DNA from: SAR324 cluster bacterium
GTDB taxonomy: Bacteria > SAR324 > XYD2-FULL-50-16
Direction: 5' to 3'
Assembly (NCBI GenBank): GCA_028282885.1
Contig: JANQGX010000059.1
Coordinates: 64,906 to 128,905, forward strand
Length of the DNA: 64,000 nt
Shown here: positions 4,166 to 59,424 of the stretch, one piece after another
How positions within the stretch are numbered: position 1 is the stretch's first letter
Layout: each line of letters opens with the position of its first letter
Notes under the pieces: model-generated
Database searches by the model: none
What the model was told of the DNA's origin: nothing
The model's input: the letters and a program-made list of their open reading frames with translations, nothing else
Made by a program: the position numbers and the translations under genes

Positions 4166-6252
4166 TTAATAACGTTCAAACTCACTGTCAGAGAGGTTCA
4201 TGCCGTCATCAAGGTTGATAGCTACCTTGGGATAAGCCTCTTCGGGTTTTTTTCTGCCATTTTCGAGTCGCGGAATATCAGCGACATTCTCTGGCTGTTT
4301 ATGTGAAATCTGACTGAATCCCTGGCGGGAAGAGACAGGCTTTGCTTTACTTACAGGGGGGGCATGTCTGGATGTGCCATTTACTTTGAAATAATCGATT
4401 GAACTCTGAAGTTGTTGAGCCTGGGCGGCCAATTCTTCAGAAGTTGATGCCATCTCTTCGGTAGCACTGGCATTTTGTTGAATCACAGAATCAAGCTGTT
4501 GGATAGCCTTATTGATTTGATCGACGCCGGCATTTTGTTCATTGCTGGCAGCGCTGATCTCCTGGACCAGTTCCGCTGTTTTCTGAATATCGGGTACCAG
4601 TTTCTCCAGCATCTGGCCTGCTCTTTCAGCAACTTCAACACTGTTGGATGATATCTGCGAGATTTCACCGGCTGCAGTTTGACTGCGTTCTGCCAGCTTA
4701 CGAACCTCCGCAGCCACCACTGCGAATCCCTTTCCATGTTCACCGGCCCGTGCTGCTTCAATTGCCGCATTCAGGGCCAGGAGATTGGTATTTCGTGCAA
4801 TTTCCTCAATGATGGATATCTTGGAAGCGATTTCGTTCATGGCACCTACAGCCCTATTAACGGCGGAACCGCTCTCCTTGGCATCCCTGGATGCCTGGAT
4901 GGCGATTTGCTCGGTCTGGCTTGCGTTATCCGCGTTCTGCTGAATGTTGGCGCTCATCTGCTCCATGGAGGAGGTGGTCTCTTCCACCGAAGCCGCCTGT
5001 TCGGTAGCTCCCTGGGACAACTGCTGGGCAGTCGAACTCAGTTGTTCGCTGCCAGCAGTGACATTATCCACTGCCAGCCTGATTTCCCCAACAATAGAGC
5101 TGAGCTTGGACACCATCTGGTTAAGTGCGTGTGCCAGTTCTCCCACCTCATCCTTCTGATCCAGATCCAGTTGATCGGTCAGATCCCCTTCGGACACCAC
5201 CTTTGCAAAACCAACGCCTTTGCCGATGGGACCGGTTATTGCCTTGGCAATAACGATAGCGATAATGATACCGATGACCAGTGCGACAACACAGATAATA
5301 ACAACAACCAGGCGGGTGTTGATTGCTTTGTCCAACATGAGGTCTTCTGAAATGACATTTTGACGGGTTGTATCAATCAGTCCGTCGAGCAGGTTTGCCA
5401 CTTTATCCAGGTTGGGCTGGGTTTCATTGGCAAAAACAGCCCTGGCCTTTTTAGCTCCCTCGAGATCGGATTGGGCTTTTGCCTGAAGCTGCTTGAGATA
5501 ACTTCTGGTCTCTATGAGTGTCTGTGTGGTCTCATTCCGATAGATTACAAAAGCTTCCTCGGTTTTTCCTGCTTTCAAGGCTTCGTCTATCCTGATGGCC
5601 GAATCATGGAGACGTTTGTGAGGCACTTTAATCTCCTCCAGGAGTCTGGCATACTCAGAATCCGAACTGGCCATTTGCCGTCCAACCTCTCCGAAAAGCA
5701 GTTTACCAAAAGCACATTGGGTATGATCCAGTTGAACACCGGTTTTTTCACTCTTACTCAAAATGGCATTCTGGATCTGCTCGGCCCAAGCCAGATGATC
5801 AGTTTCCCTGTTCGCCAGAATAGCGGGAAGCTGTTCGTTTGCCTGGCTAAACACTTCTTTGATTTCAATAGCAGATTCATGGAGTAGGCGATGGGGTTCT
5901 TCTATTGCTGTAAAAAGAGGTTTCAAGGCGGGTATCAGCGCCTCTGCCTTTTTTCTTCCCTCTCCGTAATACCATTTGCCGAATCCGCATTTGCGATAAT
6001 CGGTTTCAACGGTCAATTCAGTGTGTTGATCATCTGTCAGGAGTTTGTTCACTTCACCAGCCCATTTGAGGTGATCCACTTCTCTTTGCAGGAGGATACC
6101 AACCAGCTTGTTTCCTTCTGCGAGTTCCTGGGCATCTGAAACGATACCGTCAATCCCGTTCCAGGCCCAGCCCCCGACGAAAATCATTAAGACAAGAACA
6201 ATTCCGACACCGAGTAGTATCTTTCTTCCAAGTTTCAGGTTTTTCCAGCTCA
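4166..6252 (-). CDS. Methyl-accepting chemotaxis protein with two TM helices, a periplasmic sensor built from two tandem CZB-like (chemoreceptor zinc-binding) modules, HAMP and an MCP signalling domain
   Basis: TM1 is [19 protein letters not shown]; TM2 is [22 protein letters not shown]. Between them are two copies of the HxxW..(~26 aa)..CxFGxW/L..(~27 aa)..HxxxH motif: DHLKWA...CGFGKW...HRLLH and DHLAWA...CAFGKL...HKRLH. They are followed by HAMP and the MCP signalling domain ([37 protein letters not shown]). The start was set at MSWKNL, where an AGGAGA RBS is present; the ORF extends to 6340. Confidence 0.85.
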
Positions 6253-19749: not shown

Positions 19750-20889
19750 ATGTCGATGAATCGTCCGGAATTATCCGTCATCAAATTGATTGTTAAGATT
19801 TTCGTAATCTGTTTGATTCTTTGTGCCTGCGACCAGAATGATTCGGGGGTGAACACCGATACGGAGCTTCGCATATTCTCCATGGTCCCGGATGATGGTG
19901 ATTCCGACATAGCTGCCAGCGGGGTGCTGCAGGTAACTTTCAACCAGTCCGTCAACCTGTCAACTGTTTCGAGTATCCGGGAAAACGGAACCTGTTCCGG
20001 GTCTGTTCAACTGTCTTCCGATAACTTTCAAAGTTGTATCGGACTTGACTATGCGGGTTTGACCGACAACGGTAACACCATCAGGGTTCCCTATCTGGTG
20101 GAATCGGATTCCCAATACAAGATCAGAATCAGTACCGGTATCAGGGCTGAAGAAGGGGGGAGCCTTGCTGAAGATTACTCAACCGAAACCGGTTTCACAA
20201 AAGCAGACAGCAACACCTGTGACCAAATCCCGCGGGAGCGCCTGATGGTTGCCGTCGTTTTCGGTCAGTCCAATTCGACCGATTCATCACCGGGAAGAAA
20301 AACTCTGAATCGTAATGTCTATATGATGGATTCGAACGGCCTTTGTTCCTATGCCTCGGATCCTATGTTATATAAACCGGTATTGGATCTGGGGTGTGTA
20401 TGGAGCAGACTGGGACCGAAAATCGTTTCGGCGGGACTGTATGACAATGTGCTTTTTATCTCTGTTGGTGTTGGGGGGACCTCCGTTTCGCTATGGGTTC
20501 CCGGAGCGCTGTATCATGATCGAATTACCGAGGCAATGGATCTGTTAGGTAATGCCGGCTTTTCCACTACCCATTTTCTCTGGCACCAGGGAGAATCTGA
20601 TCGATATTCCACCGCCGATGAATATAAAACAAACTTCAATTTGATGCTGGGGAGTATCAGAAGTCGACAACCGACAACACCTGTTTACGTATCCATCGCC
20701 AGCAGATGTGGAGGTGATCCCATTACACAAATCCAGCAGGCGCAAATGGATCTGGTGGATATTGAAAACTATGTTTTCCAAGGACCGAATACTGATACCC
20801 TGGGATTTTCTTACAGATATGACGGCTGCCATTTTCATGAAGGTGGATTGGAAGCACACGCTGATCTATGGATGGAGGTGCTGCAGTAA
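19750..20889 (+). CDS. Lipoprotein with an N-terminal Ig-like domain and a C-terminal SASA/SGNH-type carbohydrate O-acetylesterase domain
   Basis: Lipobox (LILCACDQ). GQSN motif (VVFGQSNSTD). WHQGESD block. DGCHFH catalytic Asp/His block. All are characteristic of the sialate-O-acetylesterase (SASA / DUF303) branch of SGNH hydrolases. Confidence 0.62.
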   Translation: MSMNRPELSVIKLIVKIFVICLILCACDQNDSGVNTDTELRIFSMVPDDGDSDIAASGVLQVTFNQSVNLSTVSSIRENGTCSGSVQLSSDNFQSCIGLDYAGLTDNGNTIRVPYLVESDSQYKIRISTGIRAEEGGSLAEDYSTETGFTKADSNTCDQIPRERLMVAVVFGQSNSTDSSPGRKTLNRNVYMMDSNGLCSYASDPMLYKPVLDLGCVWSRLGPKIVSAGLYDNVLFISVGVGGTSVSLWVPGALYHDRITEAMDLLGNAGFSTTHFLWHQGESDRYSTADEYKTNFNLMLGSIRSRQPTTPVYVSIASRCGGDPITQIQQAQMDLVDIENYVFQGPNTDTLGFSYRYDGCHFHEGGLEAHADLWMEVLQ

Positions 20890-43199: not shown

Positions 43200-44978
43200 T
43201 TATGCGTTAGGCAGGTGAATAGAAAAGGTGCTTCCTTTTCCCTGGACAGTATGGACAGAGACTCTTCCGGAATGAAGCTGGGCGATGTGCTTGACAATAG
43301 CCAATCCCAGGCCGGTTCCTCCCAATTCCCGGCTTCGTGCCTTGTCTGCCCGGTAAAACCGTTCGAACAGTCTTGGCAGGTGTTTTTTATGAATACCGGG
43401 ACCCTGATCATGGATGCTGATGAACATTTCCGCATGATCGGTACCTACCTCAATTCGAACCTGGCTGCTTTCGTTGCTGTATTTCACAGCGTTGTCTAAT
43501 AGATTAACGATAGCCTGCTCCAAAAGGGTTCTGTCAATTTTTACTTTGAGTTCTGCATCACAATCGAGTTCTAATGAAATATTTTTTTCATCTGCTTTGG
43601 ATTGCAGCAATTGGATAGCAGTTTCAATAACGTTTCGGATCTCCTTCTGCTCAAGCCTGGTTTCTATTTTTTCGTCCAGTTTTTCGATACGGGCCAGGGA
43701 AAGAAGGTCTTCAATTATCGCATTAAGACGATCAACATGTCGACTGATGATTTTCATGAACCTCAGGGATTCATCCGGATTTTCCGTGAGAGATCCGTTA
43801 ATCAGGGTTTCCACAAAACCCTTGATGGTGGTGAGCGGTGTTTTCAGCTCGTGAGAAACATTGGCCACAAAATCTTTCCTGATATCTTCCAGAAGTCGGA
43901 GCCTGGTGACATCGTTTAAAACCAGCAAGGCTCCGATGTTCAGGTTATCCGCATTGAACAGGGGAAGACTCTTCAGGTTCAAAACACGGTCGCTGTCATG
44001 ATGTACGGTAATATCCTGTTCCAACGGAGCTTTTTTGGAAAGCGTCACCGCGACCTGTTTTTGCAGTTCAGAATTGCGGATCATCTCCTGGATGCTTTGA
44101 TGCTTCAGATTGACGGAGTCTATCGCCAGCATTTCCATGGCGGCCTGGTTGATACTGAGGATACGTTCCTGCGTGTCAACTGCTATCACACCCTCGATCA
44201 TACTGGAGAGAACAGCTTCATATTCGTTTCTTTGGTTAACGATGGTCTTGATCCTGTTTTCCAACTGAGAGGCCATGTCGTTCATGGACTCTGCCAAGCT
44301 GGCCAGCTCCAGGGTATCCGGAATGGGCAGGTAATAGTTCAGGTCACCCCTGGCATAGTGCTCGGCTCCGATTCTCATTTCCTCTACGGGTCTGGTAATG
44401 CGTCGTGAGAGAATCAGGGCCAGGATGGAAGCCAGGAGAGCTGTCAGAATCCCCCAAAAGAGGCGCTCCTTGAGAATGGCGTTAAGTTCGTCTTCAATGG
44501 AAGTAATGGGCACCGAAGTCCTGATGACAGCATCTATGTTGTCACCGGATTTAACAGGGATAGCAACATACATCATATTCTGGGAAAGGGTCCCGCTGTA
44601 ACGAATGGAGGAGCCGACGCCGCCTTTCAAAGCTTCGGATATTTCAGGTCTGTTTTTATGATTGTCCATGAAATCGGGATTCTCATCGGAATCTCCCACC
44701 ACTTTACCGTCAGGCAAAATGACGGTGATACGCGTAACCACCGCTTTTCCCAGGCTGTTACAAAGCTCTTTGATTGCCTTGGGATCAAGCGGCGATAACA
44801 AGGCTGAAACCTTGTCCTCGATTAGAAAAGCCTGTGTTTTCAGGTCTTTTTCCGATTGATTCAGGAAGAACTTTCGAATGGAGTTCGAAGTATATCCCGT
44901 GACTGAGATCAGTGAGACAACGATGATCAGAAGAAAGGAAGGATAGATACGCCAGATCAGTTTTCTATTTTTTGTCAT
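43200..44978 (-). CDS. phoR: Phosphate regulon sensor histidine kinase PhoR-like (two TM helices with periplasmic loop, HAMP, PAS, HisKA, HATPase_c)
   Basis: TM1 and TM2 bracket an about 150-aa loop. PAS domain. H-box (VSHELKTPLTTIKGF). ATPase boxes ([16 protein letters not shown]). It is the last gene of the pst-phoU-phoB-phoR block and overlaps phoB by 14 nt. Confidence 0.8.
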   Translation of the reverse strand: MTKNRKLIWRIYPSFLLIIVVSLISVTGYTSNSIRKFFLNQSEKDLKTQAFLIEDKVSALLSPLDPKAIKELCNSLGKAVVTRITVILPDGKVVGDSDENPDFMDNHKNRPEISEALKGGVGSSIRYSGTLSQNMMYVAIPVKSGDNIDAVIRTSVPITSIEDELNAILKERLFWGILTALLASILALILSRRITRPVEEMRIGAEHYARGDLNYYLPIPDTLELASLAESMNDMASQLENRIKTIVNQRNEYEAVLSSMIEGVIAVDTQERILSINQAAMEMLAIDSVNLKHQSIQEMIRNSELQKQVAVTLSKKAPLEQDITVHHDSDRVLNLKSLPLFNADNLNIGALLVLNDVTRLRLLEDIRKDFVANVSHELKTPLTTIKGFVETLINGSLTENPDESLRFMKIISRHVDRLNAIIEDLLSLARIEKLDEKIETRLEQKEIRNVIETAIQLLQSKADEKNISLELDCDAELKVKIDRTLLEQAIVNLLDNAVKYSNESSQVRIEVGTDHAEMFISIHDQGPGIHKKHLPRLFERFYRADKARSRELGGTGLGLAIVKHIAQLHSGRVSVHTVQGKGSTFSIHLPNA

Positions 44979-45669
44979 GATCTTCTTCTACTAAACGATA
45001 ACCCACACCACGCACGGTCTGGATGAGTTTTCCATAGGAGCCGAGTTTTTTTCGGAGACCGACGATCTGCACATCAACACTTCGGTCGGTGACATAGTAG
45101 TCCGTTCCCCTGACCGCATCGACGATTTGAGACCGGGTTGCCACCCATCCCGGTTTTTTAGCCAGGTGATAAAGAACCTGGAATTCGGTATAGGTCAGGG
45201 CGATTAACTTTCCATCAACGGAAACTTCCCGTCTGCCGGGATGAATCACCATCTTATGTATGTCGATGATTTCTTCCGCTTCTGTCGGGGCAATGCCCTT
45301 TCTGCGCAGCATGGCCTTTACACGTGCCAGCAGGATTCTCGGAGAGAAGGGTTTGGTAATATAGTCATCGGCACCCAGTTCAAGGCCGGTGACTATATCG
45401 GCCTCTTCACCCTTGGCGGTGAGCATAATAATGGGAATATTGGAGGTGGCCTGATTGTTTTTGATAATCCTGGTGATTTCCAGCCCGTCAATACCTGGCA
45501 ACATGAGGTCAAGAACCATCAGATCGAATTTTATCGAATCAATTTTTTTGAGAACCTCCTCGCCCGTAGTCACGGAAATCGTTTTGTATCCTTCCCGGGT
45601 CAGGTTGTATCTCAGCAGTTCCAGAATGTCTTCTTCATCGTCGACGAGAAGAATCGTCTCGTGGCTCAT
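44965..45669 (-). CDS. phoB: OmpR/PhoB-family response regulator
   Basis: REC domain (ILLVDDEEDILELL...LDLMLPGIDG) plus a winged-helix Trans_reg_C domain (LTYTEFQVLYHLAKKPGWVATRSQIV...VDVQIVGLRKKL). It starts 3 nt after the phoU stop. Confidence 0.85.
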   Translation of the reverse strand: MSHETILLVDDEEDILELLRYNLTREGYKTISVTTGEEVLKKIDSIKFDLMVLDLMLPGIDGLEITRIIKNNQATSNIPIIMLTAKGEEADIVTGLELGADDYITKPFSPRILLARVKAMLRRKGIAPTEAEEIIDIHKMVIHPGRREVSVDGKLIALTYTEFQVLYHLAKKPGWVATRSQIVDAVRGTDYYVTDRSVDVQIVGLRKKLGSYGKLIQTVRGVGYRLVEEDHDKK

Positions 45670-45671
45670 AA

Positions 45672-46343
45672 TTATTTTTTAACGTTGTTTGGTTTCCTGT
45701 GCCGGACAATCTCTCCATCGATGAGATGGATGACTTCTTCGGCAATGTTGGTGGTATGGTCTGCCAACCGTTCCAGATGCCTGGAGATCAGAAACAGGTT
45801 CAGCAGAAAACCCAGGCAGTGACGATTCTCATGCATCGCCTCTTTGAACTCATCATAAGCCTGGTTTTGAAACCGGTCGACTTCGTCATCCATGGTCAGA
45901 ACTTCGTATGCAAGCTCGCTATCCAGGTTGATCAGGGAATCCAGACTTTTTGATAGCATTTCCTGCGCTTTCTGTGCCATTTCCGAATAGTCGAAAGAGA
46001 AATCACACCGGTTTTGTTTACTGATGACGACCACCCTTTCAGCGATATTGACCGCCTGATCGCCAATTCTTTCCAAATCGTTGTTGATTTTGATGACAGC
46101 AATCAGAAATCTGAGGTCGACTGCAACCGGTTGGTGAAGTGCCATAATTTTAAGGCATTCCTCCTCGATCTCCACCTCTTTACTGTCAATCTCCAGGTCC
46201 TTTTCGATGATTTCCAGGGCAAGATCCGAATCGATATCCTCAATGGCTTTTACCGCCATGTTAACCCGCTCTTCAACGATAGCGCTGAGCGAAAGAATCA
46301 TTTTCTTGATTTTGTCCAGTTCGTTATGAAAATGCTTGGTCAT
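45672..46343 (-). CDS. phoU: Phosphate transport system regulator PhoU
   Basis: Duplicated PhoU helical domains (two ...NNDLERIGDQAVNIAE... / ...ISRHLERLADHTTNIAE... blocks), 223 aa. Confidence 0.9.
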   Translation of the reverse strand: MTKHFHNELDKIKKMILSLSAIVEERVNMAVKAIEDIDSDLALEIIEKDLEIDSKEVEIEEECLKIMALHQPVAVDLRFLIAVIKINNDLERIGDQAVNIAERVVVISKQNRCDFSFDYSEMAQKAQEMLSKSLDSLINLDSELAYEVLTMDDEVDRFQNQAYDEFKEAMHENRHCLGFLLNLFLISRHLERLADHTTNIAEEVIHLIDGEIVRHRKPNNVKK

Positions 46344-49153: not shown

Positions 49154-51778
49154 TTAAAGCTGCATTGTCTTTTTACGGAAGCGAAGCCTGACGATTTCAG
49201 CAACCGTGTTAATGATAAAGGTCATTGCGAAGAGAACCAGTCCCGACAGGAATAAAACCCTGTAAAGCGTTCCGTCTTTTACGGCTTCCGGAAGCTCAAC
49301 CGCGATGGTTGCAGAAAGAGCACGCAAACCGTTGAAGATGTTCCAGTCCATCAAGGGAGTGTTACCTGCTGCCATTACAACAATCATGGTTTCGCCGACA
49401 GCTCTCCCCATTCCTACCATAATTGCTGAGAATACCCCGCTCACTGCAGCCGGCAGAATCACATAAATTGCCGTCTGCCATTGTGTAGCACCGCAACCCA
49501 GGCTGGCAGCCCTGAGATGATCCGGAACCGCATGGAGAGCATCTTCGGCGATGGTATAGATAATCGGGATAACCGCAAATCCCATGGCGAATCCAACCAC
49601 CAGGGTGTTTCGCTGCACATAAGTGTCAATAACACCACCCCGGGCATCAATACCAAAAAATGAAAACAGCACCGCCAGCTCATAGGCAAAAAATATGGAC
49701 AGTCCGGCAATAACCAACCAGTAAAGGGCATCAAATCCATATATATAGAGACGGGGTGAATCGGGTGAAGGCTTACTGAGATAATTCTTGAACAACCAGC
49801 CCACCAGTGTTGCGACAGCCATAAAGACAATGGGTAGCAGAACCAGGAATATAAAGGGCTCGGCGGTTCCGAAATCGCGATTCAGCCAGGCTTTGAAATT
49901 GCCTTCAAACAACAGGTCTTCCAGCCAGGGGCCGATCAAACGGGTGACAACCAGGGCAATCATTACAACAACGAACATCAGTCCCAGTTTTTGGGCGTTT
50001 TGCCACCTGATCATCAGATGTTGAGGAAGCAACTGCCAAAGGAAGGATCCGATCAGGAGTGCCAGTGGAATGGCCACAAATGCGGCCAAAACAGCCGTTA
50101 TCCAAGTTTCAACGATCGGTGCCAGAACCAGGGCCGCTACAAAACCCAGAACAACGGAAGGGAGTGACGCCATCATTTCCATTGCCGGTTTAATAGTATT
50201 CCGGAACCGGTAATCGACAAACTCTGAAGTGTAGATGGCCCCCAATATGGCAATGGGTACTGCAAAGAGCAGGGAATACAAAGCAGCCTTGATGGAACCA
50301 AAGATAAGCGGTATCAGGGATAGTTTTTGCTCGTAATCATCGGTTGCTGCAGAAGATTGCCAGGTATAGGTTGGCTCTTCATACCCTTCGTACCAGACTT
50401 TTTTGAAGAGGGTGAAAAAGGTCGTTTCAGGGTGAGGTACGGAAAACTCGGTAAATCGGATCAGCCCGTCTTCATATATGGTCAACAAACCGTCAAATCT
50501 GGGCGAGAGAACAATCTCCGCCAGCTTTTTATCTTCCCTGGCCTTGAACTCCAGAAGTCTCTTTTGGCTGGTAGCATGGATGACAGAGGCGCTTCCGTCT
50601 TCGTACCGGACCGCAAAACTTTTTCCCCGGGTAGAGGGGGTGAAGTCTGATACCACTGCATCGGGAATTCCGTAACTTCTTGACTTGACCAGCGCTTTAC
50701 CATCGGCGGTTCCTCTCTTTTTATCATTGATAACGAAAAAGATATCAAGGGCAGCATTTGACCCCGAAACGACAATGGACTGGCTTCCATTGAGAAAACC
50801 CAGGCTGGTCATTTTCGTTCCCGGTGCTAACAGCGGGGATACTTCTGCCAGGATCGGAGCCGCAAAATCGCTTGTTTCATAACGGTAGGCCCTGCCATCT
50901 TCGGTAACAATCAACACCATATCGGCGCGATCCGTCATTAATACGGAGTGAATTCTGCTTTTGTTTTCCAATGTGGGGAGTTCCGAGTTTTGAATAGTTT
51001 GTTTTTTCTGTCCTGTCAGGAGATTGAACTTTGTTTTGATTCGATTCAGTTTGGCTTTGCCGCTTTTATCCACAGTTACGAACGCCTTGGTTTTACGCTC
51101 GGCCTCACCGCTGACTCGGTAGTCGATAGCGATAATGGATTCATCGCTCTCACTGACCTTAATGGGCTGGTCAACGGACAGGTTTAGCGAAATTTTTCTG
51201 AATTGTCCGTCCGGGATCTTGGTATAAATCACATTCCCGGCCCTGGAATCAACATCGTCCAGGGTGATAATGTTTTCGGGCACCTGGTCGGAGGTAAGGA
51301 TTTCATAAGGGAAAGTGATTTCAGCCAATTGCACGGTTCCGTCTTCAAATCCAAAGGCAAAGTGTTGTCGGTCAATAGTAGCCGAAAAGGATTTTATCGC
51401 GCTGCTGACCAGATCCATTTTATATTGTTCGATCAAAGTACCTGTTCGTGTGTGAAACAGGTACAGGGAACCATCGTCCAGAATCAGGTAAGAGATGGTT
51501 TTGTATTCATCCATACCGGCACTGATAATGCCTCCTTCAGGAAGTTCCTGCTGGTATTCTGACGAAGAAGTTATTTCACCGGCTTGAAAGAGGGGCAGGG
51601 TCTCTTTTACCAGGTAGATCAGGATGCCCAGTACGGCAATAATCACCAGGATTCCCCCAATAGTAATGACCCGGTCGGCAATGCGATCAATAATGATAAC
51701 CGACTTTCTCACTTTTTGTTCGGTTTTCCGCACAGTAGCCTGACCGCTGGATGGCGTATTATCGGAGATGTGATTCAT
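49154..51778 (-). CDS. pstC: Phosphate ABC transporter permease PstC, long form with an about 560-aa N-terminal periplasmic extension
   Basis: The C-terminal about 310 aa are a PstC-type permease (...GFVAALVLAPIV...MVGMGRAVGETMIVVMAAGN...). The N-terminal region is one TM plus a large extracytoplasmic domain. Confidence 0.82.
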   Translation of the reverse strand: MNHISDNTPSSGQATVRKTEQKVRKSVIIIDRIADRVITIGGILVIIAVLGILIYLVKETLPLFQAGEITSSSEYQQELPEGGIISAGMDEYKTISYLILDDGSLYLFHTRTGTLIEQYKMDLVSSAIKSFSATIDRQHFAFGFEDGTVQLAEITFPYEILTSDQVPENIITLDDVDSRAGNVIYTKIPDGQFRKISLNLSVDQPIKVSESDESIIAIDYRVSGEAERKTKAFVTVDKSGKAKLNRIKTKFNLLTGQKKQTIQNSELPTLENKSRIHSVLMTDRADMVLIVTEDGRAYRYETSDFAAPILAEVSPLLAPGTKMTSLGFLNGSQSIVVSGSNAALDIFFVINDKKRGTADGKALVKSRSYGIPDAVVSDFTPSTRGKSFAVRYEDGSASVIHATSQKRLLEFKAREDKKLAEIVLSPRFDGLLTIYEDGLIRFTEFSVPHPETTFFTLFKKVWYEGYEEPTYTWQSSAATDDYEQKLSLIPLIFGSIKAALYSLLFAVPIAILGAIYTSEFVDYRFRNTIKPAMEMMASLPSVVLGFVAALVLAPIVETWITAVLAAFVAIPLALLIGSFLWQLLPQHLMIRWQNAQKLGLMFVVVMIALVVTRLIGPWLEDLLFEGNFKAWLNRDFGTAEPFIFLVLLPIVFMAVATLVGWLFKNYLSKPSPDSPRLYIYGFDALYWLVIAGLSIFFAYELAVLFSFFGIDARGGVIDTYVQRNTLVVGFAMGFAVIPIIYTIAEDALHAVPDHLRAASLGCGATQWQTAIYVILPAAVSGVFSAIMVGMGRAVGETMIVVMAAGNTPLMDWNIFNGLRALSATIAVELPEAVKDGTLYRVLFLSGLVLFAMTFIINTVAEIVRLRFRKKTMQL

Positions 51779-51957: not shown

Positions 51958-52941
51958 CTATCGGATATCCAGGGCACTCTTATCTTGGTTAGCCAACATG
52001 TTGGAAACAGGATAAAAACCGTCCTTGATAACGATTCTCTGACCTTGCTTGGAAAGCACGAACTTGACGAACTCAGATCTCAGAGGCTCCAGGTTCACGT
52101 TTGGATTCTTGTTTAAATATACATAGAGGAATCGAGCCAGGGGATAATCACCACTATAAGCGTTGTCAGCATTGGCGTCATAAGCCATTTCACCAGCGTC
52201 TACTGAAAGAGGAACGGTTCTGACATCAGCAGTTTTGTAGCCAACTCCGGAGTACCCAATGGCATATTTATCTGTTGCTACACCTTGAACGACCGCTGAT
52301 GATCCGGGCTGTTCCTTAACAGTGTCTTTATAGTCACCTTTGAAGAGAGCGACTTTCTTGAAATATCCGTAGGTACCGGAAGCTGAGTTACGACCGTACA
52401 GAGAGATCGGCTTGTTGGCCCATTCGCCGGTCAATCCGATATCACCCCAAGTTTTGATATTCTTGGCGTATCCACCTTTTCTGTTTTTTGAGAAGATAGC
52501 ATCCAGTTGTTTCAGGGTAAGGTTTTTGATGGGGTTGTCCTTGTGAACAAAAACCGCCAGAGCGTCAACAGCTACACGAACCTTGGCAGGCTTGTAACCG
52601 AACTTCTTTTCAAAAGCGTCAACTTCCTTGGACTTCATTTGCCTGGACATGGGGCCAAACTGGGATGTGCTTTGAATCAGAGACGGGGGAGCTGTTGATG
52701 ATCCTTTTCCTTCAATCTCAACTTTAACACTGGGGTATAGAGCCCTAAAGCCTTCAAACCAGAAAGTCATCAGGTTGTTCAGGGTATCGGAACCGATTGA
52801 CTTCACACTTCCGGAAACACCACTTGTTTTTTTGTAAACCGGAAGAGCCGAGTCAACTTCCAGGGCCATACTTTGAGTTACAGCAAGAAAACCGGAAACC
52901 AAAAGCATCAGGATAATCTTAGTAAATCGACCTGCTTTCAT
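51958..52941 (-). CDS. pstS: Phosphate-binding protein PstS
   Basis: Signal peptide (IILMLLVSGFLAVTQSMA) plus a PBP fold with a PstS-like Ser/Thr-rich binding loop (GKGSSTAPP...SRQMK). The start was set at MKAGRF, where a GGAGG RBS sits 9 nt upstream; the ORF extends to 53010. Confidence 0.85.
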   Translation of the reverse strand: MKAGRFTKIILMLLVSGFLAVTQSMALEVDSALPVYKKTSGVSGSVKSIGSDTLNNLMTFWFEGFRALYPSVKVEIEGKGSSTAPPSLIQSTSQFGPMSRQMKSKEVDAFEKKFGYKPAKVRVAVDALAVFVHKDNPIKNLTLKQLDAIFSKNRKGGYAKNIKTWGDIGLTGEWANKPISLYGRNSASGTYGYFKKVALFKGDYKDTVKEQPGSSAVVQGVATDKYAIGYSGVGYKTADVRTVPLSVDAGEMAYDANADNAYSGDYPLARFLYVYLNKNPNVNLEPLRSEFVKFVLSKQGQRIVIKDGFYPVSNMLANQDKSALDIR

Positions 52942-53167
52942 TTTAAAAACCTCCAAAAATTTATTCCTGTTGGACCTGGATCCTGATACCAATTTAGTTC
53001 CCTTTTGCATTTTAAGGGATAAGGATACCTGAACCAGGTTAAAACGATGAAAGAAAATGAGATCTCATTTTCAGTTTGGATTATTAGCATTCTGTTAGGA
53101 GCGGGTTAAGTCTTGATTAACCTTAAATCCGACACCATGTACTACAAATCTGATTATTAATGCTGTT

Positions 53168-53250
53168 TGTTAGTTTGTCGTTAATCGTATGTTAATATTC
53201 CACTAACCTTCTGCTAGGAAATTGTGTGAATTATGTTAGATTTTTGTTAG
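53168..53250 (-). promoter_or_regulatory. Phased array of TGTTAG/TGTTAA-type hexamers (minus strand CTAACA/TTAACA) at exact 11-bp periodicity: a candidate PhoB (Pho box) operator upstream of pstS
   Basis: Hexamers start at 53168, 53179, 53190, 53212 (tgctag), 53223 (tgtgtg), 53234 and 53245. All are in one 11-bp register. They lie 220-310 nt upstream of the pstS ATG, on the same strand orientation as the pst operon. Confidence 0.5.
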
Positions 53251-53639
53251 TTTACTAATTTTTAATAACAAACCCAAAAATGACGAGGGATTACAAGCCG
53301 GTAACCGCTGATATGTTTAATCGGCCTGAATAATATCACTAAATGGTGCTTTAACACGGTTCCTGGTTTACTTCCGAAGGGCATCTGAAAACGCTCTCGC
53401 TTTCCGGCTTTTAGGATTTCCACAAGTGGTGAAGCAGAGTCACTACTGTTTGATATAATACTGAAGGCATTTACTTTTTCGGGATTGGCGAAAACACTCC
53501 GGCCATCACTTTTACAGTTGTGTGGGCATGAACCCGGGAAGTTCTCCCATTACGCGGATGCCTGCATTCTGATGATAAAATGTGAGGTTGTCCGGCGCGC
53601 GAGACCCCGTTTGCGAACGGGAAGATAACACGTAAGGGC

Positions 53640-53675
53640 AAAAAAAGCGGATGTTATAGGCATCCGCTTTTTTTA
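53640..53675. terminator. Bidirectional rho-independent terminator (8-bp GC-rich stem, 7-nt loop, A7 on one side and T8 on the other)
   Basis: aaaaaaa-GCGGATG-ttatagg-CATCCGC-ttttttt. It lies 55 nt downstream of the stop of the triple-repeat lipoprotein gene (minus strand) and insulates it from the pst promoter region. Confidence 0.65.
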
Positions 53676-53730
53676 GAAGGGGGGATAATCGGCCTGGTAG
53701 TAAGCCGGGAGAGGAGAGACTTGTCGGCGT

Positions 53731-54552
53731 CTAACCCTGTTCGTAACGTTGCTTCAATGTTTCAGCAAGGTCTTTGTTCTTTTTGTCAACTTCAAAGATC
53801 ACTGTTTCACCATTGGGGCCTGCTCCCAGAACGGTTCTGGTGTATGGCAGGTGTCCGGTTTTGGCGAAAGACTTGTTTGTTTTGGTGTTACCGATCACGT
53901 AGATTCTGTTTCTGAGCTTCCAGACAAAATAGCTGTCTCCGTCGGCCTGCAGCAGAACCGGTGTTCCTTCATAGCGTTCCTTCAGTTGCTCGGCGAATTC
54001 CGGCTTCTTTTTGTTGACCTCAAAGATGACCGTTTCACCAAAGGGACCGGCGCCCAGAACTGTTTTGGTGTAGGGGAGATGATGCAGGGTTTTGAAAGAC
54101 TCGTTTGTTTTCGGATTTCCGATAACGTAGATTCTTCCCTTGTATTTCCACACATTATAATTATTCCCTTTTGATTCGATCAGAAAGGGATTGTTTTCAA
54201 AACGCTGCTTCAAACCTTCAGCGAATTCCGGCTTCTTCTTGTTGACTTCAAAGATTACCGTTTCACCATTGGGGCCTGCTCCAAGGATCGTCCGGGTATA
54301 AGGGAGATGATGCTGGGTTTCAAAGTCGGCACTGGTTTTGGGATTACCGATGACGAAGATCCTGTTGTCATATTTCCAGACAAAATAGTTATTGTCCTGG
54401 GAATCCAGTAGTACCGGTTTTTTCTCAACCTGGGCAGCCACAGGCTGGGCTGCGTCTGGCGTTTTGCTGGGGGCGCTGGCCTGCTTTGCACTATTGGAAC
54501 ATCCAAACAGCATGATCGCTGCAAGGGTGTAAACAGTCATTCTAAACTTCAT
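53731..54552 (-). CDS. Lipoprotein with three tandem about 75-aa repeats of unknown function
   Basis: Signal peptide plus lipobox (AAIMLFGCSN). Three copies of NNY.VWKY..RI(F/Y)VIGN.KT...F...HHLPYT.T.LGAGP.GETVIFEV.KKKPEFAE.LK.R(F/Y)E. Confidence 0.6.
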   Translation of the reverse strand: MKFRMTVYTLAAIMLFGCSNSAKQASAPSKTPDAAQPVAAQVEKKPVLLDSQDNNYFVWKYDNRIFVIGNPKTSADFETQHHLPYTRTILGAGPNGETVIFEVNKKKPEFAEGLKQRFENNPFLIESKGNNYNVWKYKGRIYVIGNPKTNESFKTLHHLPYTKTVLGAGPFGETVIFEVNKKKPEFAEQLKERYEGTPVLLQADGDSYFVWKLRNRIYVIGNTKTNKSFAKTGHLPYTRTVLGAGPNGETVIFEVDKKNKDLAETLKQRYEQG

Positions 54553-55326
54553 AGTAACTCCTGATCATTTTTTGGAATTGAAGGGTTCAAGAACAGTCAG
54601 GCGGGCAATGGGCTACCATCGCCGGGTCATCTGCAGAACGCCTGTCTTAAGTATTAAGTACAGTCTTAAATTAAAAGCGATTTATTAGAAAATTATTAAT
54701 GTGTTGTTAGAAGAGTGTTCAAGCGGGGTGGCGAAGAGCTCTAACATAACCCTAATAATCCTTGCTGAATTAAAGAGAATGAAAGGGTGTATCAATTGGC
54801 TTGAAAGCCATTAAAATGCAGTGCCTTGCATGGGATATAACTCCTGGGTCATGATCAGATCCATTCAACTAAAAGTGCTGGGTTCATCTGTCCGAATTAT
54901 TGTTTGGTAAATTTTCGCGTATAGAAATGATCATCAATGCTGACAAGGTTTTCTGGAAAGAATATAAGTCTTTCAACTAATTCTAATTCATCCGGGGATC
55001 TCTTTTCTACGGGACTGCCAAATGAAGTGCCAGACTTATTAAAAGCAAACTCTGGAGAATCTGATCAAACCCCAGTATTGTTTTTCCGTGTTCCTGTCCA
55101 AACAGCTTGACACACAAAAGCCAAGTTCATATCATTTCATCATCAAATCCACAGAACTGGTTCGCTCTGTATGTCCCGATATTGTGGCTGCAGTCCCTAG
55201 TCGCCTTCCCAATATCTTCGTCCTTGGCGACCCTCCCCCTAATTTTTTCTGACTTGATTTCAGGAAGCGTATCGCTATCAAACAAATTGATCCATAAAGC
55301 AGTCCTTCGGAAACCACGGGTTATCT

Positions 55327-58300
55327 ATGAGAAATATGTTTTTGCTTCTTTGTATTTTCTGTTTATTTCACGTTGTACAGCCTGCGCTAAGTGCCCAGCG
55401 ATTTGAAGCAGCATTTCGATATTTAACGGTTGATGACGGACTTCCCACGAATACAGTTCTGGATATTGCCCAAGGCAAAAAAGGTTTCATGTGGTTCGCA
55501 ACCCATGCTGGCTTGGTCCGATACGATGGCCGATTGTTCAAGGTGTATCGTCATGACCCGGAAAATGTGAATAGCCCGAGTCACAACATAATCAACACAC
55601 TTGCCATAGATATGGATGGGAATATCTGGTTGGGAACCGGAAATGGTTTGAATATGCTTAACCCTGTGACAGAGACATTCCATCGGATCCCTTTTGTGGA
55701 TGTCAATGAAAATGAAAACGATGATCCTTCAATCGTGGATCTACTTGCGGATCAATCCGGCATCATCTGGCTCTTGACTGAAACAGGTCAGTTATGTCGG
55801 TACGATCCCCAAAAAAGACGCTTTTCCAAACGTCCATCCCAGTTGGTTAGCCAAAAAGGATTACTGACAAGAGGATTGCCAAGGAGCTTATATGAAGACA
55901 GTGAAGGTGATCTTTGGATTGCATCAGAGCAGGGGATGATCAGATTCAACAAGCGATCTGATCAAGTTTCATATGTCCTGAATACCAACAAACCTTCAAC
56001 TGTTCGGCCAGTTCCATTTACTATGATTGTTGAAGATAAGCAGGGTCGATTCTGGGGTTTGGGTGTTGACGCTATCAAACAATTTAACAAGCAATCCGGA
56101 GGCTTCGTTAAATCGGTCAAATTGAAAGACGAAAGCCATTTCAATCGTTTTATGTCATCAGTATCCAAGCTGGATGACCTCTATTGGTATATTTATCCGC
56201 CAAAGGGACTGATCGTTTTGAATCCGGAAACCTTTCAGCGGTATATTTTTAAAGTGGATATTCAAAACGAAAAAGCCCTGAAGGAAAAAGAAATAACCAA
56301 AGCTTATTACCAATCATCAAGTGGAATTGTTTGGGTTGCAACGTGGAATGGAGGACTTGCCCTGCTGGATCTTAAGAAAAAACCTTTTTATATGCATCGA
56401 AGGAGGCCCGATCAAAAAAACAGTCTAAGCAGCAGTAAAATCTCAGCATTTGCAGAAGCCCCAGGCACGAATCTTTGGGTTGGAACAAAGGGTGGCGGGT
56501 TGAATTATCTGGATCGCGCGCAAGGGAAATTTTCACACATACGCCTCAATACAGACAAAAATAGTGGTATGCCGGATGATGATATCACAGCTTTGCTGCT
56601 TGATTCGAAAAACGTTCTTTGGATTTGCACCCGGGTCGGTGGTCTTTGGGAGCTCGAGCCGAACTCCAACAGTATTCGCCATCACCCGATTCTTGAAGAT
56701 AAGGGTATTCAAAAACATTTGCCTGGCATCAAATATCATAAGAAAAGCCCGAAAAAAGAAAGGCATTTGTCAATACCACCACCCCACTATTCAAAGTTTT
56801 CCAGTCTATTAGAGGGCGAGCAAGGGATTTTATGGATTGGTGGCTGGACCGGTTTGGTTGCATATACACCTCTGCAGCGCCATTTTCAACTTTATGAACC
56901 CAAGATCACAGGAAACCATTGGGTCAGCACCCGAATTCTTGATGATGGTGAGGGTAAGCTCTGGTTTGGACTCTACCTGAATGGTCTTGCCAGCTTTGAT
57001 ATGAGTACACTTCAGTTCAAGCACTACTTCCATAAAACAGGAGAGCCCAATTCACTATCGAGTAACACGGTATTTGGAGTGGAAAAAGGAGATGACGGAC
57101 TGTTATGGATCGCGACAGATAAAGGTCTTCAGTCTTTCGACACTACCGCCAATGTGTTTTCAACCTATAACAAAAGCCAGGGACTTACCAACCTCACAAT
57201 AAGATCGATTATTAAAGATAAAGAAGGGAACCTTTGGTTAGGCACAAATTCAGCTCTCAGCAAATTCAACCCATTTGACAGACAGTTTATCAATTTTGAC
57301 CGCTCTGATGGACTCCATGGAAATGCTTTCAATGAAAATGCCGTCTTCAAAAGCCAGGATGGCGAATTATATTTTGGGGGTCAAACCGGTTTTAGCTATT
57401 TTTATCCAAGCGAGATCCATAAAAGCAATGATGAGCCAACCATTGTTATTACCAGTCTTACTCAGGCTGGAGAGCCGATACAGCAAAATATCACACCGAT
57501 ATATACTGATGAGATAACATTGACCTGGCCCAACAATTTTTTCGAATTTGAATTTGCTGCCTTGAATTTTCGGAACAGCTCCAGGAATCAATATGCCTAT
57601 CACCTGGAAGGACTGGATAAGACATGGTTTTACACGAAAAACAGTGGCCAGGGGAAATATGTTAACCTTCCCGGTGGTGATTACACTTTGAAGCTGAAAG
57701 CGAATAACAGCAACGGTATTTGGAGCCGCCGACCGATTTCCCTTAAAGTGCATGTGGTACCGCCCTTTTGGCAAACATGGAAATTCCGGCTTCTAATTCT
57801 GGCAGCAATAATAATAATCCTATCTGTCGTTTTTTATCTGAAGTATTATCAGTTTAAAGTAAAGCAGTTAAAGGCAACTGCTCAGGCTCAGTCGGAAAAG
57901 AACGAGGCTTTAAATAAAGCTAGGACGAACGCCGAGATTGCCAATAAAGCAAAAAGCGATTTCCTTGCCAATATGAGCCATGAAATTCGAACCCCAATGA
58001 ACTCAATTCTGGGATTTGCAGATCTGCTTTATGGTCAAATTGAAGATGTAAGGCACCGAAGCTATCTGGAGGCCATTCGTTCCGGTGGAAATGTATTGTT
58101 GACACTGATTAATGATATCCTCGATCTATCCAAAATTGAAGCGCGACAGACAGATATTTATTACCAGCCTTTAAGTCTAAAAAAAGTTTTTGACGAATTA
58201 GCAAACGTATTCTCCCTGAAACTATCTCAAAAGAACTTGAGGTTCACTTTTGAAATATCTGATCATCTCCCAGATATTCTCTTGTTGGATGGAGCTCGAT

Positions 58301-59424
58301 TCAGGCAGGTTTTGTTGAACCTGATAGGGAATGCAATAAAGTTCACAGAAGAGGGAGGTATCAATCTTGTTGCCAAGGAATCAGCAATTTATCAAGACCG
58401 TAAAACGGTCGACCTTATGATATCAGTTGAAGATTCAGGTGTTGGTATTGCCAAGGAAGAGCAGAAAAAGATCTTTGATGCTTTTTATCAACAGGATGGT
58501 CAGAATGAGAAGAGATATGGTGGGACGGGGTTGGGACTGGCGATATCTAAACGGCTTGTTGAATTGATGAAGGGTACCATCAGCGTGGAAAGTGAACGCG
58601 GGAAAGGGACTGCATTTCGAATTAATCTTAAGGAAGTGAAGATCCATGATGCGCCTGAAACCTGTTCCTCTAATATCACAAAAAAAATAACCGAAAAGGA
58701 TTGGACCTTTAAGCAATCGTCCCTTCTGATTGTGGACGATAATGAGCCCAATCGCAGCTACATCAAAGCGTGTTTTGCCGGTATTGAGCAGATAACAGTC
58801 ATTGAAGCAAATGATGGACATGAAGCGCTTAGCAAAGCGCGTAAGAACACCCCCGATCTAATCCTGATGGATATCAAGCTGCCGGGGATGAGTGGTACGG
58901 AAACACTTCAGCTTATGAAGCAGGATGATATTTTGAGCAAAATCCCTGTCATAGCTTACACGGCTTCCTATTTCGATGAGGATCTGAAACATATAAAACA
59001 AAGTGGCTTTTCTGATGTATTGAAAAAACCGGTCGTCAGCGATGCCTTGTTGTTGATGGTCAAAAAATATGTTGGATTGAGCCCTGCTCAAACCGATGTT
59101 CCGGATTTGGCTACAATTGATGAAACAGGGGACATTTCATCCGATCAGAAACACAAGATTACTGAAGTTGTTTCTATACTTGAGCAAGATTTCACGCCAC
59201 TCTGGCGCAGGCTTGAAAAAAAACAGAAGGTTGAAACCGTAAAAGAGATGGCAGGTCGACTTGTCGAAATTGGAAAACAAAATGACTGTGTTATGGTGAG
59301 CCAATATGGTGAGTTGCTCTCAAACTACATTGACAGTTTTGATGTGGCAAATATGAGAAGCCATCTTAAAGCATTTCCGGATCTGCTGGAAACATTAAAG
59401 AGGCGTTTAAATCCACACGAGTAG
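55327..59424 (+). CDS. Hybrid sensor kinase of the two-component-regulator-propeller type (signal peptide, Reg_prop beta-propellers, Y_Y_Y domain, TM, HisKA, HATPase_c, REC, and a degenerate HPt-like C-terminal helical domain)
   Basis: Repeated propeller blades ([45 protein letters not shown]...). Y_Y_Y domain ([45 protein letters not shown]). One TM ([17 protein letters not shown]). H-box ([15 protein letters not shown]). Receiver domain ([11 protein letters not shown]...[12 protein letters not shown]). Confidence 0.85.

Follow-up and report, generated by a model that had tools for sequence, protein, structure and literature searches.

Extended arrays of 11-bp direct repeats upstream of pstS as a probable Pho-box cluster with two predicted promoters

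Introduction

Upstream of the pstS gene in the window (the whole 64 000 nt stretch of DNA analysed here), a hexamer recurs along one strand at intervals of 11 bp. The question raised by this locus is whether the array is a control element of the Pho regulon and, if so, which promoter or promoters it serves. PHO boxes are pairs of 11-nt direct-repeat units that are bound head-to-tail (PMC4415409), and an initial annotation of this DNA had proposed a probable Pho box cluster. In our study, region 52700–53760 of the window was read on both strands and compared with the loci of PstS relatives from species-representative genomes (mostly Desulfobacterota MAGs, 60–78 % identity) and from metagenomes.

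Results

The array stands in front of an operon of the following genes, identified by Pfam and NCBIfam matches unless otherwise given:

51958–52941, minus strand: pstS, 327 aa, with a signal peptide, first gene of the operon
49154–51778, minus strand: pstC, 874 aa
47428–49143, minus strand: pstA, 571 aa
46591–47412, minus strand: pstB
45672–46343, minus strand: phoU
44965–45669, minus strand: OmpR/PhoB-family response regulator, presumed binder of the array (NCBIfam, operon context)
43200–44978, minus strand: PhoR/PnpS-like PAS-HisKA sensor histidine kinase (best NCBIfam matches PnpS and PhoR, below cut-off)

The regulator and kinase genes follow pstSCAB-phoU, so that phoB-like and phoR-like genes do close the operon, as had been noted previously, and the regulator is the sole OmpR-family one in the operon. 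Its best NCBIfam match was PhoB (TIGR02154), with a score of 238.7 bits that is below the equivalog cut-off of 296.2. The pstS ATG is at 52941, with a ribosome-binding site (GGAGG) at 52954–52950. PstC carries an N-terminal extension of ~600 aa, with weak beta-propeller Pfam matches, ahead of its permease domain, and this long form of the protein (872–874 aa) is common to the window and to two related loci, L166 and L161.

The following elements were recognized in the region upstream of pstS:

53168–53250, minus strand: distal array of eight 11-bp units (direct reading and shuffle tests; orthologous seven-unit array in L166)
53153–53158, minus strand: candidate −10 element AATAAT of a predicted promoter, P1 (promoter scan and the N9 plus nAnnnT rule from relatives)
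53082–53120, minus strand: proximal array of four 11-bp units
53067–53072, minus strand: candidate −10 element GAAAAT of a predicted promoter, P2 (9 nt after CTAATA, N9 rule)
53053–53072, no strand assigned: perfect 20-nt palindrome that overlaps both the −10 element and the predicted start of P2

Read on the plus strand, the distal array consists of TGTTAG (53168), CGTTAA (53179), TGTTAA (53190), a degenerate CACTAA (53201), TGCTAG (53212), a weak TGTGTG (53223), TGTTAG (53234) and TGTTAG (53245), all in one 11-bp register. The initial annotation had counted seven hexamers in a single phase; the register itself was correct, but the slot at 53201 had been skipped, there being eight units in all, and the hexamer at 53179 is CGTTAA and not TGTTAA. 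On the minus strand, units 1–4 read CTAACA (53250–53245), CTAACA (53239–53234), CACACA (53228–53223) and CTAGCA (53217–53212), and units 5–8 read TTAGTG (53206–53201), TTAACA (53195–53190), TTAACG (53184–53179) and CTAACA (53173–53168), which bears out the CTAACA/TTAACA previously reported for the pst-coding strand. Six of the eight units are within one mismatch of YTAACA, CACACA and TTAGTG being the two poor matches, and the eight together are the equivalent of four Pho boxes. The array lies 227–309 nt upstream of the pstS ATG, in agreement with the earlier figure of 220–310 nt.

Shuffling indicated that this degree of phasing is exceptional for the composition of the DNA. When the whole window was dinucleotide-shuffled 300 times, the highest number of units in phase was 2–4, and 5 or 6 were never obtained; 2000 shuffles confined to the intergenic region gave a count of 4 once and nothing higher. 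The strict dimer YTAACNNNNNNYTAAC (YTAACN-N5-YTAAC) was matched four times in 64 kb across both strands, against an expectation of 0.25; all four matches are on the minus strand between 53094 and 53250, and a count of four was reached in none of 100 shuffles. Tandem Repeats Finder found no array here, even at a score of 30. The spacers of the distal array are unrelated and the hexamer cores alone repeat, which argues for an array of binding sites rather than a duplicated satellite; whole units that are alike, spacers included, as in a tandem-repeat satellite or iterons, were not seen. The layout is instead that of Pho boxes, with head-to-tail 11-bp units of 6–7 conserved and 4–5 variable bases, present here as 8 + 4 units.

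The further four units, absent from the earlier account, form the proximal array: TTAATC (53120–53115), TTAACC (53109–53104), CTAACA (53098–53093) and CTAATA (53087–53082). It is 2 bp out of register with the distal array and 47 bp separate the two, indicating that the distal array is not a simple continuation of the proximal one. Each array is followed at a fixed distance by a predicted −10 element. AATAAT lies exactly 9 nt after the last distal hexamer (TTAACG-N5-CTAACA-N9-AATAAT) and matches TATAAT in five of six positions, the chance of its occurrence at exactly N9 being estimated at ~1 % from the regional base composition. The predicted start of P1 would then be near 53146, giving a leader of ~205 nt, in keeping with the long leader or upstream start that had been inferred earlier; the last two distal units, TTAACG and CTAACA, fall at about −38 to −22 of this predicted start. 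For P2, GAAAAT follows CTAATA at N9 (the same hexamer is found at N9 in L022, L026 and L030), and the predicted start is near 53060, with a leader of ~119 nt. The four proximal units were computed to lie at −60 to −22 of that start, and they probably form the main Pho promoter. TAATAAT, at 53086–53080, was considered as the P2 −10 element and dropped because of the N9 rule and the L166 orthologue, with CTAATA being the fourth unit and GAAAAT the −10.

The palindrome GAAAATGAGA/TCTCATTTTC (GAAAATGAGATCTCATTTTC) may serve a second, dimeric regulator as its operator or form a hairpin at the 5′ end of the mRNA, and it is not conserved in L166. The 217-nt pstS leader folded no better than its shuffles (z = −0.71). 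Rfam matched no family at the gathering threshold over the whole window, and in E-value mode over 52900–53760 it returned only sub-threshold, terminator-like matches on the plus strand. Searches of the pstS 5′ region thus yielded neither an Rfam match nor a fold that beat shuffles, either of which would have pointed to a known structured RNA.

Related loci gave comparative evidence on the function of the repeats. Many relatives carry (C/T)TAACA-N5-(C/T)TAACA, often in 2–4 units, 60–105 nt upstream of pstS. Across 80 genome loci, YTAACN-N5-YTAACN occurred 29 times in the 23.7 kb of sense strand within 300 nt upstream of pstS and six times in the remaining 1.28 Mb, an enrichment of ~260-fold. 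A dimer was present upstream of pstS in 54 of 160 loci, representing 51 distinct sequences, and the last hexamer was followed by nAnnnT at a distance of exactly 9 nt in 40 of these 51 distinct upstream regions (78 %), other offsets reaching no more than 20 %. This fixed distance to the −10 element suggests that the repeats stand where a sigma-70-type promoter has its −35 region, the layout that defines Pho boxes (PMC4415409); in the window, AATAAT, GAAAAT and TAATTT (the last upstream of a lipoprotein gene, below) all stand at N9. The window array is the longest among 169 related loci, with six of its eight units matching (five being reached only by L166, L084 and L005), and the 8 + 4-unit layout is likewise the longest. 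The metagenome scan revealed no PstS relative above 79 % identity, and an exact-sequence look-up of PstS with either start codon returned no record.

The closest syntenic relative, L166, was reached through a homologue of the lipoprotein and has the same lipoprotein–pstS–pstC synteny, with a PstS that is 83 % identical. Its intergenic DNA is otherwise unalignable to the window, and both pstS arrays are kept. The distal array of L166 has seven units in phase (CTAACA, CTAACA, CTCATA, CTAACA, CTAGTC, TTAACC and TTAACA), which match the window pattern unit by unit, with the degenerate units 3 and 5 included, and it lies ~400 nt upstream of the proximal array, TTAACC, CTCATC, CTAACA and CTAACA followed by N9 and AAGAAT. 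A four-unit array followed by N9 and TACATT is also found upstream of the L166 lipoprotein gene. No nAnnnT is present at N9 after the distal clusters of L166, L084 and L085, and hence what is conserved in the distal array may be a function other than that of a promoter.

The initial annotation had named recurrence at other phosphate-starvation genes as a check on its proposal, and such recurrence was found in our scan of related loci. Outside the regions upstream of pstS, only eight strict dimers were present in 160 loci. Two of the eight precede OmpR/PhoB-family regulator genes adjoining pstS (L062 and L153; 57 and 48 % identical, respectively, to the window regulator) and one precedes a gene for a phosphate-selective porin (Porin_O_P), a recurrence at regulator and porin genes such as an autoregulated Pho regulon would be expected to show. 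A PWM for which the dimers of the relatives were the sole source recovered the pstS sites of the window and, in addition, an array in front of the neighbouring lipoprotein gene:

54668–54721, minus strand: array of four phased units followed by N9 and TAATTT, upstream of the lipoprotein gene (PWM and orthologues)
53731–54552, minus strand: lipoprotein of 273 aa with lipobox LFGC, upstream of the pstS control region
53640–53674, no strand assigned: bidirectional terminator-like hairpin (14-bp perfect stem, A7/T7 flanks) between the lipoprotein gene and the pstS control region, which it separates

Two further PWM matches were dismissed as fortuitous, both being non-canonical and within an ORF: one at 6051 and one at 19807, the latter lacking nAnnnT at N9.

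The units of the lipoprotein array are TGAACA (54721–54716), CTAACA (54710–54705), TTAATA (54699–54694) and CTAATA (54688–54683), with TAATTT at 54673–54668. Orthologues in L163, L166, L167 and L168 have 3–4 phased units followed by N9 and nAnnnT; in L163, L167 and L168 the gene is away from the pst genes, yet three phased units are retained. The orthologue in L169 has no such phased array, so that arrays were present in five of six contexts, the window included. A promoter with Pho-type boxes both here and in four of five orthologous contexts makes the lipoprotein a candidate phosphate-starvation protein, and on these grounds it is put forward as a candidate new member of the Pho regulon with an undescribed fold. 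The protein consists of three repeats of ~85 aa, YxVWKxxGRIYVIGxxxTxxxFxxxxHLPYTxTxLGAGPxGETVVFEV, and has no family match in Pfam or NCBIfam. Its 164 homologues are mostly unnamed or hypothetical, the few organism-labelled ones being from Desulfobacterota-type MAGs. Its AlphaFold model is confident (pLDDT 89.6), and Foldseek searches of this model against the PDB gave no match (best E value 0.02, TM ≤0.2). Against the first 80 loci, no useful match was obtained with the intergenic region (blastn) or with the lipoprotein (tblastn).

Several minor observations were made in the surrounding DNA. The box dimer CTAACAtaaccCTAATA occupies 54741–54757 on the plus strand, in a back-to-back arrangement with the lipoprotein promoter, and points to a hybrid histidine kinase gene (55327–59424; Reg_prop, Y_Y_Y) that is ~570 nt away; it is followed at N9 by GAATTA, with no T at position 6, and so is not canonical. 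The ~380 nt from the lipoprotein terminator to the distal array (53260–53640) contain no ORF longer than 56 aa and no Rfam match, and are unconserved in relatives; the fold of 53256–53700 was no better than shuffles (z = −0.90). An exact 11-mer, TAATCGGCCTG, is present at both 53318 and 53686, for which the probability of chance occurrence is ~7 %.

Discussion

Our study suggests that the repeats upstream of pstS are likely to be a cluster of Pho boxes to which the regulator encoded at 44965–45669 binds, serving two tandem Pho promoters. The earlier proposal of a probable Pho box cluster thereby gains the support of strong comparative evidence, namely the ~260-fold enrichment of the dimer, the N9 spacing in 40 of 51 upstream regions and the recurrence within a putative regulon. 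Under this explanation, PhoR would phosphorylate PhoB upon phosphate limitation, and the phosphorylated PhoB-like regulator would bind the head-to-tail 11-bp units with their (C/T)TAACA core, with PhoB dimers occupying pairs of units. The promoter-proximal dimer (about −38 to −22) would replace the −35 element and recruit sigma-70 RNA polymerase, leading to induction of pstSCAB-phoU-phoBR, autoregulation included. The distal array would most likely constitute the second, upstream Pho promoter P1, with its six further units acting as extension sites of lower affinity at which PhoB is loaded cooperatively, and the lipoprotein gene would be co-regulated through its own four-unit array. The architecture of the sequence, its statistical significance, and its conservation and spacing among relatives were observed directly; PhoB binding, the start sites and induction are predicted from what is established for PhoB/PhoP-type regulators (PMC4415409; PMC2691820).

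The least certain element of this explanation is the role of the distal array. The array may bind PhoB and yet drive no promoter, being instead an auxiliary platform for P2, with all pstS transcripts starting near 53060; it would act by raising the local concentration of PhoB~P or its cooperativity, through oligomerization along the DNA or looping, or by setting the threshold of induction. We consider this somewhat unlikely, although it accounts well for L166, in which the distal array lies ~400 nt upstream of the proximal one and, as in L084 and L085, has no nAnnnT at N9, and for the conservation of the array while its distance to pstS varies; the PhoP operators of Streptomyces also have extension units beyond the core. 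It accounts less well for the strength of the last distal units in the window (TTAACG and CTAACA), for an AATAAT at exactly the expected spacing, with its ~1 % probability by chance, and for the 2 bp by which the array is out of phase with the proximal one across 47 bp. A broader form of the idea is more doubtful still: that the array of 7–8 units is a conserved, promoter-independent PhoB-loading platform, enhancer-like or titrating, placed from ~50 to ~400 bp from pstS, which together with the lipoprotein defines a Desulfobacterales-specific Pho extension. It is very improbable that the distal promoter makes a separate short, phosphate-regulated sRNA or leader RNA ending at the AU-rich hairpin 53072–53053 and its U-rich tract, leaving pstS to be transcribed from P2 only. 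A perfect 10 + 10 palindrome followed by TTTCATCGTTTT is indeed found ~75–95 nt downstream of the predicted P1 start, but the stem has just two G–C pairs and fails the terminator scan, the leader neither folds better than shuffles (z = −0.71) nor matches Rfam, and the segment is unconserved in L166 and contains no plausible small ORF with a ribosome-binding site.

The identity of the binding protein and the reality of the array may also be questioned. The window regulator scores under the PhoB equivalog threshold and the boxes of OmpR-family proteins can look alike, so another direct-repeat regulator, of that family or unrelated to it, could be the one that binds, the link to phosphate then being incidental. 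Little credence can be given to this, as the motif accompanies pstS in dozens of lineages that are far apart, also precedes pstS-linked regulator genes and the phosphate-selective porin gene, and lies in front of an operon whose only OmpR-family regulator is the PhoB-like one. Short A/T-rich hexamers are frequent in AT-rich DNA such as this region, and yet a chance pattern is scarcely credible given that six of eight units were reached in 0 of 300 whole-window and 0 of 2000 intergenic shuffles, that strict dimers numbered 4 against 0.25 expected, and that the array is conserved in L166. The reading as a Pho-box cluster with two tandem promoters is therefore the one we prefer, and the distal array is almost certainly, from its sequence and distribution, an unusually long example of an ordinary and well-known control element.

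Comparison with known systems revealed likenesses in architecture and differences in detail. Read directly, E. coli pstS has four in-phase 11-bp units, CTGTCAT, CTGTCAT, CTTACAT and CTGTCAC, followed by 10 nt and TATTTT. As in the window, these are direct repeats on the coding strand that stand in for the −35 element with a set spacing to the −10, and their number is the same as in the proximal array. However, the window core is CTAACA and that of E. coli CTGTCA (AA versus GT at positions 3–4), the distance from hexamer to −10 is 9 nt compared to 11 nt in E. coli if TATTTT is the E. coli −10, and the window, unlike E. coli pstS, has 8 + 4 units in two separate arrays. The recognition helix also differs, being VTDRSVDVQIVGLRKKL (QIVGLRK) in the window and VEDRTVDVHIRRLRKAL (HIRRLRK) in E. 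coli, with R200 replaced by V and R201 by G. In the crystal structure of PhoB with DNA, R201 reportedly contacts the G of TGTCA, and its replacement by G would fit the loss of this base from the window box.

The PhoP boxes of Bacillus subtilis are TT(A/T/C)ACA repeats with a spacer of ~5 bp, and in activated promoters four such repeats span about −60 to −20. Their hexamer is almost the same as that of the window (TTAACA occurs in the array), and the 11-bp period is the same and the promoter positions are similar, although Bacillus belongs to another phylum and its PhoP to another regulator lineage, and the window prefers C at position 1 (CTAACA). Our literature search for Pho boxes with a TTAACA or CTAACA core found nothing usable. 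In D. vulgaris, a member of the Desulfobacterota that was placed in the same broad group, DAP-chip of PhoB (DVU1083) identified a 6-bp direct repeat, (c/t)GT(n)AC, with a 4-bp spacer upstream of pstSCA (PMC3333781). As in the window, a 6-bp direct repeat thus precedes pstSCA; the complement of that box, GT(n)AC(a/g), is one position from (C/T)TAACA, and GTAACA variants are found in relatives L008, L011 and L088. The DVU1083 box differs in its 4-bp spacer and first base, and only dimers are described for it, whereas the window has extended arrays. The PhoP operators of Streptomyces coelicolor are also built from 11-nt direct repeat units, class III comprising core plus extension units, in which conserved core units lie near the promoter and weaker in-phase extension units bind further monomers (PMC2691820). 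The strong units 7–8 and 1–2 and weak units 3 and 5 of the distal array follow the same logic, but the Streptomyces unit, GTTCACC, is unrelated in sequence and its glnII operator has five units compared to eight in a row in the window.

Two variants were noted among the relatives. In the GC-rich loci L092 and L093, TCTTCAC-N5-TGTCAC is present upstream of pstS, nearer to the TGTCA box of the E. coli type. With lineage and GC content, the core thus seems to change by degrees, from TGTCA by way of GTAACA to CTAACA/TTAACA. In L001, L003 and L082/L083/L148 (Desulfobacteraceae and Desulfatirhabdiaceae), the pstS leaders are ~165 nt long and share a segment, …cctgacatgtc…caggc…gacgatc…ggaaaacg…, that is missing in the window and could be a clade-specific leader element.

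These results leave the current understanding of Pho regulation unchanged. They provide a usable Pho-box model, (C/T)TAACA-N5-(C/T)TAACA-N9-nAnnnT, for poorly studied and mostly uncultured relatives of sulfate reducers, with which phosphate-starvation regulons can be predicted straight from genomes and which has already flagged one uncharacterized lipoprotein family as likely to act in phosphate starvation. The 8 + 4 layout lends itself naturally to studying how a two-component response is tuned by additional sites of low affinity. Two Logan contigs, L161 and L162, from runs SRR20820739 and SRR20820733, are identical to the window over 1817 nt, a stretch that spans the lipoprotein gene and the pstS control region, which indicates that the source organism is present in those public runs.
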